A stretch of 64,000 nt of DNA, from positions 27,013 to 91,012 of IMG/VR virus record IMGVR_UViG_3300045526_000254. The stretch is one strand, 5' to 3'. The position numbers and the translations under genes are program-made. Source of the DNA: a virus. Taxonomy: Duplodnaviria > Caudoviricetes. Of the stretch, positions 26,452-34,650 are shown piece after piece. A model generated the notes under the pieces. That model was not told where the DNA came from and made no database searches. It was given only the letters and a program-made list of their open reading frames with translations. Each line of letters opens with the position of its first letter. The first letter of the stretch is position 1.

Positions 26452-26989
26452 AAAAGATTGGACGGCGTATTGTAGAACTTCTTTTAATGCATTAAAAGGA
26501 AATATAAAAGATTGGGGTAAACCTGAATTTTATCGTCCAATTACTAGAATTTATTATATCAATGTATTTGACTGTGGACTTTCTAATTTTACAGGTCTTG
26601 TAAGTAAAAAGGCATTAGAAAATAAACTTCAAGGTAAAAAAGTTGTTTATGATCACTGCCTTTCTCCACAGTTTATTGGGAGAATGATTATGGATAACCC
26701 TCACAAATACTTATCGGAATATTCTGTTTTTGAAAATATTTTTTGGCAATCTTGTAAAACCGTTATGGTCACTCAGGATGAAAATTTTGCTCTTGCAGGA
26801 CTCACAGAAAACAACGGACAAGAATATAAAGTTTATGTTCCTACTAATAAGAAATATAATCATCTAGGAATTAACCTATATTTTCGCCCACAGAAGCATG
26901 GACGCTGGAACGAGGCAGTTCCTCTGGATACAAATCTGATTGATACTCCAAAGGATCTGTTAGAATATGAAAAAGAATTTCTTGTTTGA
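26432..26989 (+). CDS. Hypothetical protein
   Basis: 185-aa ORF; a DH..SPQ..EN pattern could be a His-Me finger (weak). Confidence 0.6.
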   Translation: MIMKRIKKDWTAYCRTSFNALKGNIKDWGKPEFYRPITRIYYINVFDCGLSNFTGLVSKKALENKLQGKKVVYDHCLSPQFIGRMIMDNPHKYLSEYSVFENIFWQSCKTVMVTQDENFALAGLTENNGQEYKVYVPTNKKYNHLGINLYFRPQKHGRWNEAVPLDTNLIDTPKDLLEYEKEFLV

Positions 26990-28050
26990 TTATGTTATCT
27001 CCAGAAAACGCTATTTGGGCAGCGAATCAATTTATAGAGTATTATTCTAAGTTTAATAGAATTGATGACTATATGAGATTCGTTAAGAAAAGCAGAATTT
27101 TAAACTCTGCTGGCAAATTATTTGGACCTGAAGATGAAATGTTTTCAGATTTTTCTTTAGATCCAAATGACATGTCTTTCACAATTCATGAAGTAGATAC
27201 AGGATCTAAACCAAAAACTAAGTATAATCAGGAATTGTACTCTGAAATTTTAAATCTCACGGCATCAAATCCTATTGAAGAGGCAATTCCAGGAAGAACA
27301 ATAAAGTGGATTGTTACTGAGGATAATACAAAAAAAGTTGTAGGTGTGGTTAGGTTTGGATCACCGACAATTAATTCAAAACCAAGAAATGATTATTTTT
27401 GTGAGGTATTACCATTATCGAAAATTAATCATGAATTTGTAATGGGATTTAATATTGTTCCTGTTCAACCTTTTGGATACAATTATCTTGGTGGAAAACT
27501 ACTTGCATTGTTAGCATCATCTAATGAACTCAAACGACAATTTGATTCAAAGTATGGAACTGATCTTCATTACTTTGAAACAACTTCATTGTACGGTACA
27601 ACGAAAGGGGTATCCATGTATGATGGTCTTAAACCTTATCTTCGACACATAGGAGATACTGAGAGTAAATTTTTACCACTTTTTCATGATGACTATTTTC
27701 GTGAAATGTTCTGGTGGTTTAATAACAATGCTAACGGTGGAGAACGACTTATTTCTGCTGATAAGTCATCGAAGAAATTGAAGATTCAAGTCAAGATGAT
27801 TTCAATCATCATAAAGTCCCTTCAAGATGCTTCAAAACTACATGAGTTTAAATCTTGCATTGAACATGCCAAATCTCTCACAGAAAAAAAGAGATACTAC
27901 ATTTCTGAGTTTGGATATGAACCTGAAGAGGTTATTTCTTGGTGGAAAATAAAAGCATCTAAACGATATAAAAAACTTAAAGAAGAAAATCGTATTAGAA
28001 CAAATTTAGAATTATGGACTGTAGACTCTAATTTGCAAATCATTAGATAG
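26986..28050 (+). CDS. Conserved cyanophage protein (possibly DUF4338/DruA-like fold)
   Basis: VPVQPFGYNYLGGKLLALL, FETTSLYG; between gp44 and gp62. Confidence 0.6.
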   Translation: MIMLSPENAIWAANQFIEYYSKFNRIDDYMRFVKKSRILNSAGKLFGPEDEMFSDFSLDPNDMSFTIHEVDTGSKPKTKYNQELYSEILNLTASNPIEEAIPGRTIKWIVTEDNTKKVVGVVRFGSPTINSKPRNDYFCEVLPLSKINHEFVMGFNIVPVQPFGYNYLGGKLLALLASSNELKRQFDSKYGTDLHYFETTSLYGTTKGVSMYDGLKPYLRHIGDTESKFLPLFHDDYFREMFWWFNNNANGGERLISADKSSKKLKIQVKMISIIIKSLQDASKLHEFKSCIEHAKSLTEKKRYYISEFGYEPEEVISWWKIKASKRYKKLKEENRIRTNLELWTVDSNLQIIR

Positions 28051-29692: not shown

Positions 29693-30004
29693 ATGTCAAT
29701 TAAATTAGCACTGTTGAAGTCTGGAGAATCAATAATTTCAGATGCTAAAGAATTAGTTTCTGATGATAAAGTTTGTGGATATTTATTTCATAATCCACAT
29801 GTTGTTGATGTAAGAAAAACTGTTCTTTTGGTTGAAGAAAATCAAAATTCAAATAAAAATTTAGAGATTACTTTAACTCCTTGGATTTTTTTAAGTAGTG
29901 ATAAGCAAATTCCAGTTCCACCTGATTGGATTGTAACGATTGTAGATCCCATAGAAGAAGTTAAACAAATGTACGAGGAAAAAATAAATGGACAAAACGA
30001 TTAA
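29693..30004 (+). CDS. Conserved hypothetical protein (Sm-like)
   Basis: IKLALLKSGESIISD...PW. Confidence 0.7.
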   Translation: MSIKLALLKSGESIISDAKELVSDDKVCGYLFHNPHVVDVRKTVLLVEENQNSNKNLEITLTPWIFLSSDKQIPVPPDWIVTIVDPIEEVKQMYEEKINGQND

Positions 30005-30245
30005 GTGTCTTTTAACAGATGTTGATGCAGTTTTAATTAGTGAAGTTGTTGAAATTGATGCAGAATTCGGAGATCCTGATTGGAAATTAATCAATCCATA
30101 TAAAATTGACAGTCAAGGTAATTTAACTCCTTGGCCTAATGTTTCGGAACAAAGGGAAATTAAAATTATTTCAGATAATATACTTACTGTTGTAGATCCT
30201 AAACCGGAAATTATTGAAAAGTATCTTGAACTAACTGCCGAATGA
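29988..30245 (+). CDS. Conserved hypothetical protein
   Basis: Coupled ORF directly before gp43. Confidence 0.7.
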   Translation: MDKTIKCLLTDVDAVLISEVVEIDAEFGDPDWKLINPYKIDSQGNLTPWPNVSEQREIKIISDNILTVVDPKPEIIEKYLELTAE

Positions 30246-31519
30246 GATTTTACACAAACGTTCAAATGGTCGGGGATCACTTCTTGGTTCGTGGTTATGA
30301 AGATGGAAATCACTTTATGACCCGTGAGAAGTTTAACCCGACTCTTTTTGTCCCTTCTAATAAAAAAACTAAATATCAGACTTTAAATGGAGAGTATGTT
30401 GAAGCAGTTCAACCTGGATGTGTTCGTGATTGTAGGGAGTTTGTTAAAAAGTATGAGAATGTAGAAAACTTTAAAATCTTTGGAAATACTCAATACATCT
30501 ATCAATACATTTCTGAAATGTATCCTGAGGATGAGATTAAGTTTGATATTGGTAAAATCAAAGTTACTACTCTGGATATTGAGGTTGCATCCGAAAACGG
30601 TTTTCCTGACGTAGAATCTGCTTCTGAAGAAGTCCTTTTGATTACTATTCAGGATTATTCTTCCAAACAAATTCGTACTTGGGGAATGGGTCCTTTCCAG
30701 AACAAGCAAAAGAATGTAATTTATCGTTCTTTCACTAATGAACGTGATCTGTTGATGGATTTCATCAATTGGTGGATGGTTGAAGAAAATATTCCTGAAG
30801 TTGTGACTGGATGGAATGTTGAACTGTATGATATTCCGTATCTTGTTCGTCGTTTAGATCGTGTTTTAGGCGAAAAACTGATGAAGCGTATGTCTCCTTG
30901 GGGTCTTGTAACCGAGAGTGAAATTTATATTTCTGGACGTAAGCATATTTCTTATGATGTTGGTGGTATTACTCAACTTGACTATCTGAATCTTTATAAG
31001 AAATTCACTTATAAAGCACAGGAGTCTTATCGTTTGGATTATATTGCCGAGGTTGAACTGGGGCAGAAAAAACTAGATCACTCCGAGTTTGATACCTTCA
31101 AGGATTTTTATACAAAGGGTTGGCAGAAGTTTGTAGAGTACAACATCGTTGACGTAGAACTTGTGGACCGTTTGGAAGACAAGATGAAACTGATTGAACT
31201 CGCAATCACGATGGCATATGACGCCAAAGCGAACTATGCAGATGTATTTTCTCAGGTGAGAATGTGGGATACAATCATTTATAACTATCTGAAGAAGAGG
31301 AATATTGTTATTCCTCCTAAAGAACGTTCTGATAAAGATTCCAAGTATGCTGGTGCGTATGTTAAAGAACCTATTCCAGGAAAGTATGATTGGGTTGTGT
31401 CTTTTGACCTCAACTCCCTATACCCTCACCTCATTATGCAATACGCAATTTCACCAGAAACTCTTGTTACACAAGATGATATTAACAATCGTATTGCAGA
31501 ATTAGAGAAAATGTTGTAG
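30242..31519 (+). CDS. gp43: DNA polymerase B, N-terminal fragment (exonuclease + motif A)
   Basis: LDIEV, TGWNVELYDIPY, SFDLNSLYPHLI; stops 23 codons after QYAISPET begins. Confidence 0.93.
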   Translation: MRFYTNVQMVGDHFLVRGYEDGNHFMTREKFNPTLFVPSNKKTKYQTLNGEYVEAVQPGCVRDCREFVKKYENVENFKIFGNTQYIYQYISEMYPEDEIKFDIGKIKVTTLDIEVASENGFPDVESASEEVLLITIQDYSSKQIRTWGMGPFQNKQKNVIYRSFTNERDLLMDFINWWMVEENIPEVVTGWNVELYDIPYLVRRLDRVLGEKLMKRMSPWGLVTESEIYISGRKHISYDVGGITQLDYLNLYKKFTYKAQESYRLDYIAEVELGQKKLDHSEFDTFKDFYTKGWQKFVEYNIVDVELVDRLEDKMKLIELAITMAYDAKANYADVFSQVRMWDTIIYNYLKKRNIVIPPKERSDKDSKYAGAYVKEPIPGKYDWVVSFDLNSLYPHLIMQYAISPETLVTQDDINNRIAELEKML

Positions 31520-31565
31520 AATATCCACACAATATAAATAATAAAGTGTGGATACAGTAAATTAA

Positions 31566-32126
31566 ATGCAACCAAAATTTAACATAACAAAAGAACAATT
31601 AGAGCAACTTTATATTGTTGAGAACAAAAGTAGAAAAGAGTGTGCTGAATTTTTTGGTTGTTCTGACCCTCTTATAAAACAAAAGATACGCAAATATGGA
31701 CTACAAAAACCAAAACAATTAGAAAATAAGAATAAAGAAAGAAAGGAAATTCTCTATTGTGAAAATTGCGGTTCTTCATTTATAGTTAGCAGATTTAGAG
31801 CAACAAGTGAAAAATGGAAACTTCGTTTTTGTTCTCATTCTTGTTCTACTAAATTTAGATATTTGGGTGAAGAACATAAACGGGCAGTTTTAAATTCTAT
31901 TGCTGCCCGTAGAAGATGTAGAATGAAAAACGCTTTTGATGCAACTGCAAATCAACAAAAAATAAATGAGATATACTGTGAAGCAAAACAACTAACGGAA
32001 GATACTGGTATTCCACACGAAGTAGATCATATTATTCCAATTTCAAAAGGAGGAAAACATCACGAAGATAATTTGCAGATTATTACTATGAGTGAAAATC
32101 GCAAAAAACATACTAAAATTATTTAA
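31566..32126 (+). CDS. HNH homing endonuclease inserted in gp43
   Basis: N-terminal HTH-like region, CENC..FCSHSC, HEVDHIIPISKGGKHHEDNLQ. Confidence 0.88.
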   Translation: MQPKFNITKEQLEQLYIVENKSRKECAEFFGCSDPLIKQKIRKYGLQKPKQLENKNKERKEILYCENCGSSFIVSRFRATSEKWKLRFCSHSCSTKFRYLGEEHKRAVLNSIAARRRCRMKNAFDATANQQKINEIYCEAKQLTEDTGIPHEVDHIIPISKGGKHHEDNLQIITMSENRKKHTKII

Positions 32127-32127
32127 A

Positions 32128-32292
32128 ATGACTTACGAAGAAGAATATCAACTACGAAACAGAGAGAAGGCAAAACAGGCAAAATATGGAATGGTATGGT
32201 GTTCTTATTGTGATAGAGATATGGTAGGTGATATTGGTAAATGTTCTTATTGTGGAAGATTTAACAACAGAAAGAAAATTCGATATGAGTAA
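32128..32292 (+). CDS. Small Zn-ribbon protein (54 aa)
   Basis: WCSYCD...KCSYCG. Confidence 0.6.
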   Translation: MTYEEEYQLRNREKAKQAKYGMVWCSYCDRDMVGDIGKCSYCGRFNNRKKIRYE

Positions 32293-33643
32293 TTCTATGT
32301 GGAAAGATGTTCGTAAAATGTCCCGTGAAGAAATTGAAGAAGAATTAGATACACTTAAAAAAGTAAGAGAACTTTCTACTAAGGTTAGTGTTGATAAAAT
32401 TCTTAATCAAGAATTAGATTTTGAACCATTACAAAAAGTAAATCTTACTATAACGGCAAATGGGTCTCTTTATCGTAGAGTGAAGGGTATGCTTCCAGAA
32501 CTGATGGAAAAAATTTATAATGAACGTGTGATCTTTAAAAAGAAAATGCTTGCTGCGGAGCAGGAATATGAGAAAACGAAAAACAAACAACTTGTTAAAG
32601 AGATTGCCAGGTGCAATAATATTCAAATGGCAAGAAAGATTCAATTGAACTCTGCTTATGGTGCAATTGGTAATCAGTATTTCCGATATTTTAAACTCGC
32701 AAATGCTGAGGCGATTACACTTTCCGGGCAAGTATCAATTCAGTGGATTATGAATGCCATGAATGGGTATTTAAATAAAATTCTCAAAACTAATGAGGTA
32801 GATTATGTTATTGCTTCTGATACTGATTCTTTGTATATTAATATGGGCCCTTTGGTTGAAAATGTATTCAAAGGACGAGAGAAAACTACTCAAAGCATTG
32901 TGTCGTTCCTTGATAAGGTCTGTCAAGTGGAATTTGAAAAGTATATTGAAAGTTCTTACCAAAAACTGGCGGACTATGTGAATGCTTATGACCAGAAGAT
33001 GTTCATGAAGCGTGAATGTATTGCCGAACGTGGTATTTGGACTGCAAAGAAGCGATATATTCTAAGCGTATGGGATAGTGAAGGTGTCCGTTATGAAGAA
33101 CCTAAACTGAAGATCAAGGGTATTGAGGCAATCAAGTCTTCTACTCCAGCACCTTGCCGTAAGATGCTGAAGGACTCCTTTAAGATCTTGATGAGTGGAA
33201 CTGAAGATGACCTGATTGAATATATTGATAAGTGTCGTGAAGAGTTCAGAAAACTTCCTCCAGAACAGATTGCTTTTCCTAAATCTGCTTCTGATATTCG
33301 TAAGTATCAATCATCTTCCAGCATTTACGGATTTAAAACTCCATTTCATATTCGTGGAGCACTTCTATTCAATCATTACATTAAAGAGAAAAAACTTACA
33401 AACAAATACTCTTTGATTAATAATGGTGAAAAAATTAAATATATTTACCTCAAAACTCCAAATATTATTCGGGAAAATGTAATTGCATTTATTCAAGAAT
33501 TTCCCAGAGAACTTGGTCTTGACAAATACATCGACTATGACCTACAATTCGAAAAGAGTTTTATTGATCCACTTAGATCTGTTTTAGATTCAATCGGGTG
33601 GCGAGTAGAAAAAACAGTTACTTTGGAGGCATTTTTTAACTAA
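32285..33643 (+). CDS. gp43: DNA polymerase B, C-terminal fragment (motifs B and C, thumb)
   Basis: KIQLNSAYG, ASDTDS, KKRY; start ATG 32285. Confidence 0.93.
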   Translation: MSNSMWKDVRKMSREEIEEELDTLKKVRELSTKVSVDKILNQELDFEPLQKVNLTITANGSLYRRVKGMLPELMEKIYNERVIFKKKMLAAEQEYEKTKNKQLVKEIARCNNIQMARKIQLNSAYGAIGNQYFRYFKLANAEAITLSGQVSIQWIMNAMNGYLNKILKTNEVDYVIASDTDSLYINMGPLVENVFKGREKTTQSIVSFLDKVCQVEFEKYIESSYQKLADYVNAYDQKMFMKRECIAERGIWTAKKRYILSVWDSEGVRYEEPKLKIKGIEAIKSSTPAPCRKMLKDSFKILMSGTEDDLIEYIDKCREEFRKLPPEQIAFPKSASDIRKYQSSSSIYGFKTPFHIRGALLFNHYIKEKKLTNKYSLINNGEKIKYIYLKTPNIIRENVIAFIQEFPRELGLDKYIDYDLQFEKSFIDPLRSVLDSIGWRVEKTVTLEAFFN

Positions 33644-34650
33644 TGGATTTTTTAAAAGATATTGTAAAAGAAATTGGTGATGATTACACTAAACTAGCAT
33701 CGGACATTGATGAGACAGAGACGTATGTTGATACAGGTTCATACATTTTTAATGCACTGGTTTCAGGTAGTATATTTGGTGGTGTATCTGGGAATAAGAT
33801 TACTGCTATTGCTGGAGAGTCTTCTACTGGAAAGACTTTTTTCTCTCTCGCCGTGGTTAAGAACTTTCTTGATACTCATCCCGATGGTTACTGTCTCTAC
33901 TTTGACACTGAGGCTGCTATCACTAAATCTCTTCTAGAAAGTCGTGGTATTGATATTCGGCGTCTTGTGGTCGTTAATGTGGTTACCGTAGAAGAGTTTC
34001 GCGGTAAGGCACTTAAAGCAGTTGATATTTACTTAAAGAAACCTACTGAGGAACGCAAACCCTGTATGTTTGTATTAGATTCTTTGGGTATGCTTTCGAC
34101 TGAGAAAGAGATTACTGATGCTTTAAATGATAAACAAGTTCGGGATATGACTAAATCTCAACTTGTTAAAGGAGCATTTCGTATGCTTACTTTAAAGTTG
34201 GGAAAGGCAAAAATTCCTATGATAGTAACTAATCATACTTATGATGTTATTGGATCTTACGTTCCAACAAAGGAAATGGGTGGTGGTTCTGGTCTCAAGT
34301 ATGCCGCTTCTACTATCATATATCTTAGTAAGAAAAAGGAAAAGGATGGAACTGAAGTTGTTGGAAATGTCATTAAGGCAAAGACTCATAAATCACGTTT
34401 AAGCAAGGAGAACCAAGATGTAGAGATTCGTCTTTTTTATGATGAACGTGGTCTTGATCGATATTATGGTCTTTTAGAACTTGGAGAATTGGGAGAACTT
34501 TGGAAAAATGTAGCAGGTCGTTATGAGATTAACGGTAAGAAAGTCTATGGAAAAGAAATTCTTAGAAATCCAGAGCAATACTTTACCGAAGAAATAATGC
34601 AAAAACTTGATGACATCGCAAGACAACAATTTACTTATGGAACGAATTGA
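33643..34650 (+). CDS. uvsX: RecA-like recombinase
   Basis: GESSTGKT, FDTE, GGGSGLKYAAS. Confidence 0.96.
   Translation: MDFLKDIVKEIGDDYTKLASDIDETETYVDTGSYIFNALVSGSIFGGVSGNKITAIAGESSTGKTFFSLAVVKNFLDTHPDGYCLYFDTEAAITKSLLESRGIDIRRLVVVNVVTVEEFRGKALKAVDIYLKKPTEERKPCMFVLDSLGMLSTEKEITDALNDKQVRDMTKSQLVKGAFRMLTLKLGKAKIPMIVTNHTYDVIGSYVPTKEMGGGSGLKYAASTIIYLSKKKEKDGTEVVGNVIKAKTHKSRLSKENQDVEIRLFYDERGLDRYYGLLELGELGELWKNVAGRYEINGKKVYGKEILRNPEQYFTEEIMQKLDDIARQQFTYGTN

Follow-up and report, generated by a model that had tools for sequence, protein, structure and literature searches.

Homing endonucleases usually need an intron or an intein to spare the gene that they invade. A 64,000-nucleotide stretch of viral DNA (positions 27,013 to 91,012 of IMG/VR record IMGVR_UViG_3300045526_000254) raises the question of how an essential gene might fare with neither: its gene 43, encoding the DNA polymerase gp43, is present as two cistrons with an HNH endonuclease gene between them. 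This stretch, referred to below as the window, is part of a 91-kilobase IMG/VR viral contig from a T4-like cyanomyovirus, and the contig is estimated to be 43% complete. Positions are counted from the first letter of the window, and all of the parts of the split gp43 locus described below lie on the + strand. The closest cultured relative in the gp43 region is Synechococcus phage S-SRM01, with 82.7% nucleotide identity. We consider it likely that the two cistrons specify a working two-chain family B replicative polymerase and that the gene was split by a homing-endonuclease module which is itself laterally mobile. The anatomy of the locus, the homology of the new protein ends to a contiguous hairpin, the wide distribution of the arrangement, the purifying selection acting on it and the conflict between the histories of module and backbone were all computed here.

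The upstream cistron (30242–31519) is an open reading frame (ORF) of 425 codons ending in TAG, and it encodes the exonuclease domain and the N-terminal part of the palm (PF03104, E 4.6e-21; PF00136, E 2e-12). The product aligns to residues 3–431 of RB69 gp43 and is 95% identical to residues 1–411 of an intact allele, L074. Motif A (DxxSLYPS; 31406–31426) was located by alignment to RB69 and to intact cyanophage gp43, which equates the catalytic Asp389 with RB69 Asp411. The last aligned residue, RB69 residue 431, lies 20 residues past this aspartate, and the stop is reached 18 residues past a conserved ISPET motif. The downstream cistron (32285–33643; PF00136) supplies the remaining palm, the fingers and the thumb, in an alignment to T4 and RB69 gp43 that covers residues ~453–897. 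It also carries motif B (KxxxNSxYG; 32636–32662) and motif C (DTDS; 32819–32830), both placed by alignment, and an NG motif near its start that corresponds to T4 residue 455. Translation from the first ATG gives 452 residues, and from the second, at 32297, which is the start in most relatives, 448. By the domain limits published for RB69 gp43, the break falls in the palm, before the start of the fingers.

Membership of the T4 gp43-type family B enzymes is evident from phmmer matches to RB69 and T4 gp43 (E 7e-73 and 2e-69, respectively). The exonuclease and polymerase motifs are all intact in alignments to RB69, T4 and intact cyanophage gp43, and they are divided between the chains, A falling to chain 1, B and C to chain 2. 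A sequence-only reading of this DNA had described a polymerase in two cistrons around a free-standing HNH gene, with chain 1 ending soon after motif A, the polymerase resuming at ATG 32285 and the motif A and motif C carboxylates on separate chains. The ORFs, Pfam matches, coordinates and motif positions agree with this description throughout.

The gap between the cistrons contains, as had also been read from the letters, a late-promoter HNH gene and a small Zn-ribbon ORF. The sequence immediately after the chain 1 stop forms a 9-base-pair inverted repeat (31522–31554, with arms at 31522–31530 and 31546–31554), whose loop holds a T4-type late promoter, TATAAATA (31533–31540). This element adjoins the start of the HNH gene on its upstream side and is kept, with wobble-compatible changes, in all HNH-type cassettes. 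The HNH gene (31566–32126) encodes 186 residues comprising an N-terminal helix–turn–helix (HTH) domain, a Cys-rich middle and a C-terminal HNH domain (PF01844, E 1.8e-8, residues 137–183), with further matches to the PHROG HNH and endonuclease VII families. It is free-standing, having its own ORF in a different frame and its own promoter in the upstream hairpin, and it lies outside any intron or intein. The Zn-ribbon ORF (32128–32292; 54 residues, CxxC...CxxC) is optional cargo: it occurs in 5 of the 27 split loci described below, at 85–92% nucleotide identity, and the one PHROG family that it resembles, weakly, has no known function. The first ATG of chain 2 and the stop of this ORF overlap (ATGAGTAA), which suggests translational coupling.

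Could the interruption be removed, by a group I or group II intron, a split or bridged intein or ribosomal bypass, to yield a single continuous polymerase chain? Introns are a known feature of T4-type phages, some relatives of this gene are intein-bearing, and the two fragments in the window happen to be in the same frame. The last point does not generalise; an in-frame mechanism was considered and rejected because the fragments at other loci are not in one frame, the length of the gap modulo 3 differing among them. A search of positions 30000–34000 against Rfam at E ≤ 10 found no intron, only chance snoRNA-like hits, and five other split loci searched at the gathering thresholds likewise gave no intron. 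As for inteins, neither fragment has an intein domain in Pfam, and the ends at the junctions, of 18 and 33 residues, are short and lack both intein blocks and Cys/Ser...His-Asn junction residues; the earlier view that intein ends and a group I intron core are absent is thus upheld. Moreover, the stop codon of chain 1 and the start codon of chain 2 are identical across all cassette types, including one reduced to a 171-nucleotide HNH remnant, and the residues next to them are selected as protein. A continuous chain is very improbable on these grounds.

Chain 1 ends in an 18-residue tail (31463–31516) and chain 2 opens with a 33-residue head (32285–32383). In the ordinary gp43 of cyanophages, 30 residues separate the ISPET and NG motifs and there is no segment resembling tail or head (47 loci, including S-SRM01, P-SSM5, S-SKS1 and P-TIM68). 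The intact gp43 of S-CAM7 (867 residues) and of nine metagenomic relatives has 61 residues in this interval, and the extra 31 align to the tail and then to the head, contiguously and in frame. In a second fused form (P0121 and P0122; 860 residues), the arms are near-identical to those of the split alleles and are joined by a short turn. Across these intact polymerases the in-frame insert amounts to about 26–31 residues. The tail matches helix 1 of the fused-form insert, and the head matches helix 2, preceded by an 8-residue start that is specific to split forms. Since the P0121 turn is homologous, codon by codon, to the middle of the head, the residues peculiar to the split state are only the 2–3 before the stop and about 8 after the start; these extra residues, among them an invariant Trp, are strictly conserved. 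MAFFT sometimes placed the tail on the segment following the break (5–6 of 14 identities), as it might if the tail were a diverged duplicate of that segment, but the tail fits helix 1 of the fused forms far better and is accounted for by that homology. An α-hairpin that is contiguous in intact polymerases provides homologues of both tail and head, one for each arm, so that the cassette occupies the turn of this hairpin.

Structure prediction is consistent with this assignment. In the AlphaFold2 model of P0121, helices at residues 409–422 and 426–441 flank a turn at 423–425, with a predicted local distance difference test score (pLDDT) of 81–89, above that of the surrounding palm, and the 3-residue turn forces the two helices together. 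The window locus was modelled as a single chain by read-through of the stops, with a 255-residue junk linker included. Here the tail (pLDDT 79/68) and head (pLDDT 83) are again helical, within an overall range of 68–83 for the two, and the linker scores about 21. This model, itself of moderate confidence, resembles RB69 gp43 over the whole chain (Foldseek E 1e-47; template modelling score 0.63–0.70 on the target). DSSP assigns the helices in both models, and the spacing of the conserved hydrophobic residues is 4-3-4 for the tail and 4-3-3 for the head. The two segments were also inspected for covariation. The tail is almost invariant, and the one clear correlate, Lys or Ser before its last two residues, tracks the cassette type; because the two segments are physically linked in the DNA and the tail varies so little, covariation is uninformative on contact.

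The ends had been proposed in the sequence-only reading to be new, complementary helices. Their character as amphipathic helices is borne out, but not their novelty, as contiguous hairpin arms exist in the intact S-CAM7-like and P0121 polymerases; judged by alignment, tail and head are 'added' only relative to ordinary cyanophage gp43. A role for the hairpin as a clip that rejoins the polymerase halves is plausible, and the native palm/fingers interface alone may be enough for assembly. The order of events may have run either way: the hairpin arose in an intact polymerase that was then split at the turn, or the cassette was lost and the fused forms arose by re-fusion. The fused alleles of S-CAM7 type make up a single monophyletic clade on a long branch, a depth compatible with both orders. 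P0121 is placed among ordinary and split backbones, and its module is closer to the split alleles than its backbone is, a comparison of sequences that mildly favours re-fusion after endonuclease loss in that lineage.

To survey the arrangement, the first 75 residues of chain 2 were used as a search probe. The same head is carried by 153 clusters (at 90% identity) of proteins of 448–469 residues, and across 118 representatives its start residues and the hydrophobic positions of its helix are invariant while the intervening positions vary. Tail and head are found paired at 27 loci, the window included, and every split allele found has both arms. With the 26 other loci coming from other metagenomes, the arrangement is neither chance nor an assembly error. 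As an observation in its own right, two relatives of the C-terminal fragment (P0110 and P0113) contain a mini-intein of about 175 residues in motif C, directly after DTDS, so that the polymerase of these phages is split and intein-bearing at once.

These data bear on the suggestion that the split gp43 is a decaying pseudogene or an assembly artefact, for which one may point to the incompleteness of the metagenomic contig and the absence of the arrangement from cultured isolates. Against it, independent contigs from many samples have the same arrangement, every exonuclease and polymerase motif is intact, and the backbone is 95% identical to an intact allele without excess branch length, the terminal branch of the window being no longer than that of its intact sister. 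In addition, the three records searched each gave exactly one N-type and one C-type match, and the sequences are under purifying selection, as set out below. We give this explanation hardly any credence.

Among 20 distinct alleles, the last 11 residues of the tail are near-invariant despite many synonymous changes, with a ratio of nonsynonymous to synonymous polymorphism (pN/pS) of 0.18. For the head the ratio is 0.22–0.33, the lower value being that of its first 13 codons, and for 100 codons of the fingers region it is 0.32. By this measure the tail and head are under purifying selection. The result is pertinent to a further explanation, in which the two-chain polymerase works but owes nothing essential to its helical ends; these would be passive leftovers, and the native palm/fingers/thumb interface would achieve assembly by itself. 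Such an assembly has a parallel in Aeromonas phage 44RR, whose two-cistron gp43 is split at another site and whose gp43A and gp43B reportedly form a complex; moreover, the hairpin must lie outside the catalytic core, as ordinary intact cyanophage gp43 does without it. Passive ends would not, however, be expected to be constrained at least as much as the fingers, to retain their hydrophobic positions in all 118 representatives, to conserve strictly the split-specific residues with their Trp, or to be present as a pair in every split allele. We regard this explanation as unlikely, and return to a two-chain polymerase in which the helical ends contribute.

How the split came to be in this backbone is indicated by comparison with L074, the nearest backbone. 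Up to 31465, and once more from 32492 onward, the two DNAs share 91% identity; between these points there are 1026 nucleotides in the window and 126 in L074. The intervening segment, 31466–32491 as delimited in 30-nucleotide windows, comprises the tail, the cassette, the head and about 100 nucleotides of polymerase-coding flank. Its tail, HNH gene, Zn-ribbon ORF and head flank match those of other split loci at 82–95% identity, although the backbones of these loci share only 68–80% with that of the window. In a backbone tree built from about 800 columns with the junction excluded, the split alleles are scattered among ordinary intact alleles, well-supported branches forcing at least 10 changes of state, and a single split clade is rejected by the approximately unbiased test (difference in log-likelihood 1352, p 3.9e-47).

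The 3′ boundary of the mobile segment is a conserved LPELM-coding stretch, and the 5′ boundary lies from about 30 to about 90 nucleotides upstream of the break, depending on the pair compared. Variation of this kind in the flanking tract would be the pattern expected of co-conversion during homing. Presence and absence at a single site are further documented by intact and split alleles in near-identical backbones and by a cassette of which only a remnant is left. The polymerase flank of the module has a 2-residue insertion and a 1-residue deletion in common with the S-CAM7-like clade, which indicates that it came from a polymerase of that kind or from a common source. Overall, the trees and identities indicate that the module is laterally mobile, with a history that conflicts with that of the backbone. 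The same replication cluster harbours another presence/absence endonuclease polymorphism: at L093 (5872–6450), two contigs with identical gp43 chain 2 differ by a 192-residue HNH-like gene between uvsX and a 2OG-Fe(II) oxygenase gene.

The contents of the slot between tail and head vary. There may be an HNH gene alone, with its stop one base before the chain 2 start and GGAG upstream; an HNH gene with the Zn-ribbon ORF, as in the window; an HNH gene with a Dam-type methyltransferase gene; a gene of GIY-YIG type, where the tail stop overlaps the late promoter; or only the 171-nucleotide remnant of the 3′ end of an HNH gene. The HTH of the HNH protein (residues 5–48) has 48% identity with the HTH at the C terminus of the GIY-YIG protein from the same slot (E 7e-13), from which the two nuclease domains appear to share one DNA-binding module at one site. 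The range of variants resembles the familiar succession in which endonucleases invade, decay and are replaced, and the split lasts longer than the endonuclease. This persistence is seen in L012 and L013, where 171 nucleotides separate the tail stop from the head start and only the last third of the HNH gene is kept, with Tyr where the HNH protein of the window has Asp preceding the HNH histidine; in these two loci split gp43 persists after decay of the endonuclease. At L035 (819–1271), the position after the HNH gene, where the window has the Zn-ribbon ORF, is taken by an N6-adenine methyltransferase of Dam type (PF05869, E 2e-31), which may serve in self-protection or be cargo.

A scheme can be proposed that would account for the spread of the split. 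The module consists of five parts, in order: a short helix and stop codon that end chain 1; a late-promoter/hairpin control region; an endonuclease gene, of HNH type here and of GIY-YIG type elsewhere with the same HTH DNA-binding domain, sometimes accompanied by cargo; a start codon and second helix that open chain 2; and about 100 nucleotides of divergent polymerase-coding sequence. The endonuclease presumably cleaves the intact gp43 of co-infecting phages near a site just past motif A, and the cut would be mended with the split allele as template, which would bring in the entire module between the ISPET- and LPELM-coding stretches, both of them conserved. Since an antiparallel α-hairpin comes with the module, both arms included, the recipient polymerase would be cut at a surface turn, and the halves could reassemble through the native palm/fingers interface together with the hairpin arms. 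A stronger formulation is that the module constitutes a self-contained 'gene-splitting kit', equipped with its own stop, its own start and both arms of the reassembly hairpin. A single homing event would then turn the intact, essential polymerase gene of another phage into one for a viable two-subunit enzyme, the split would outlast the endonuclease, and the swapping of nuclease domains on a shared DNA-binding domain would keep the module mobile. We view the case for and against this formulation as evenly balanced.

Several points weigh against a two-chain polymerase split by a mobile module. We infer the association of the chains, their polymerase activity, the activity and target of the endonuclease, homing and the contribution of the hairpin, and tail–head contact in the split protein we infer only from the model of the fused homologue. 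Both models are of modest overall confidence (mean pLDDT 60 and 72), built on shallow alignments of close relatives. The hairpin may be unnecessary, given that the halves of 44RR gp43 can work as two chains divided at another site. General recombination between cyanophages, without endonuclease action, could put an old module into new backbones. Completeness is just 31–43% for the records in which a second polymerase gene was sought. Finally, the split is absent from the cultured phages of the INPHARED collection, a tblastn search with the head against 50,697 phage records having returned only fused or ordinary alleles.

In the window, the genes around the locus are ordered gp62, regA, hsp20, DUF6561, gp43, uvsX and gp41. 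Directly upstream of gp62, a 354-residue ORF (26986–28050) matches the Druantia DruA family (PF14236, E 3.9e-11), an unusual occupant of the clamp-loader region of a T4-like phage.

The region of gp43 that holds the break serves as a marker of cyanophage diversity. With the break inside this marker, amplicon surveys and automated annotation may miss or mishandle split alleles. More broadly, the locus is probably a case from nature in which an essential enzyme has survived division, on a population scale and in abundant ocean viruses: the same break is found in many backbones, alongside intact, fused, endonuclease-bearing and remnant-only alleles. How far the splitting of essential enzymes is tolerated, whether portable interaction helices are needed and how a free-standing endonuclease spreads with its flanks become testable questions here, and anyone wishing to build split family B polymerases may find a natural design in this break site and hairpin. 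In the cited literature we find two intein-less precedents, Aeh1 nrdA and Aeromonas phage gp43, each confined to a single lineage. Split gp43 in cyanophages was not described in the full-text literature searched, a body that mostly excludes subscription journals.

Among the closest known systems is the split gp43 (43A/43B) of the Aeromonas salmonicida phages 44RR2.8t and 25 (Petrov et al. 2006, J Mol Biol 361:46; Petrov, Ratnayaka & Karam 2010, J Mol Biol 395:457; as cited in PMC2677866 and PMC2993671). There, too, two adjacent cistrons specify a T4-type family B polymerase without an intein; motif A belongs to chain 1 and motifs B and C to chain 2, and in phage 25 the gp43 cistrons flank a free-standing homing endonuclease gene. 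The 44RR2.8t genes are annotated 43 and 43B and encode 498 and 391 residues. The 44RR break, however, lies about 70 residues farther downstream, at the tip of the fingers, so the cyanophage break is at a different site. The cyanophage split differs further in belonging to another phage family, in moving between backbones and in having a helical hairpin that is also contiguous in related intact polymerases.

In phage Aeh1, NrdA is split by insertion of the HNH gene mobE (Friedrich et al. 2007; Crona et al. 2011, PMC3045599), and the fragments are, according to the title of the latter paper, assembled by interaction domains derived from the mobile element. The likeness is that insertion of an HNH homing endonuclease gene splits an essential gene of DNA metabolism with neither intron nor intein. 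The enzyme is a different one, however, and one phage is known to have it, whereas the cyanophage module has been traced to 10 or more backbone lineages and comes with either of two types of nuclease. Furthermore, since the candidate interaction segments of the cyanophage enzyme also form a contiguous hairpin in intact homologues, an origin in the mobile element is not implied, in contrast to Aeh1.

The 'fractured genes' of marine metagenomes, in which a split intein is combined with a free-standing endonuclease (Dassa et al. 2009, PMC2677866), are similar in that an endonuclease gene interrupts a gene for replication or repair, dividing it into two parts. In that account, control elements arrive with the endonuclease, and the model includes invasion of intein-less genes (PMC2677866). 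Unlike the products of fractured genes, the cyanophage gp43 chains have no intein halves and must therefore stay separate. A true fractured gene was observed beside split gp43 at L094 (4977–7103) and at L095, where uvsX is arranged as the N-terminal part of RecA with an intein N half, a NUMOD3 endonuclease gene and an intein C half; in L094, intein-dependent and intein-free splits stand side by side. Archaeal PolB provides another family B polymerase made from two genes, as the two-gene enzyme of Methanothermobacter thermautotrophicus (Kelman et al. 1999) and the split-intein enzyme of Nanoarchaeum equitans (Choi et al. 2006), both as cited in PMC2677866. These are cellular enzymes, though, with breaks that are unlinked or presumably differently placed, and no endonuclease cassette.

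That an essential replication gene can be split by a free-standing homing endonuclease, with neither intron nor intein, was therefore known already from Aeromonas gp43 and Aeh1 nrdA. What is new here is the site, the phage group and the scale, together with a break that moves as a module with both arms of its hairpin, the existence of natural fused controls and the swapping of endonucleases.

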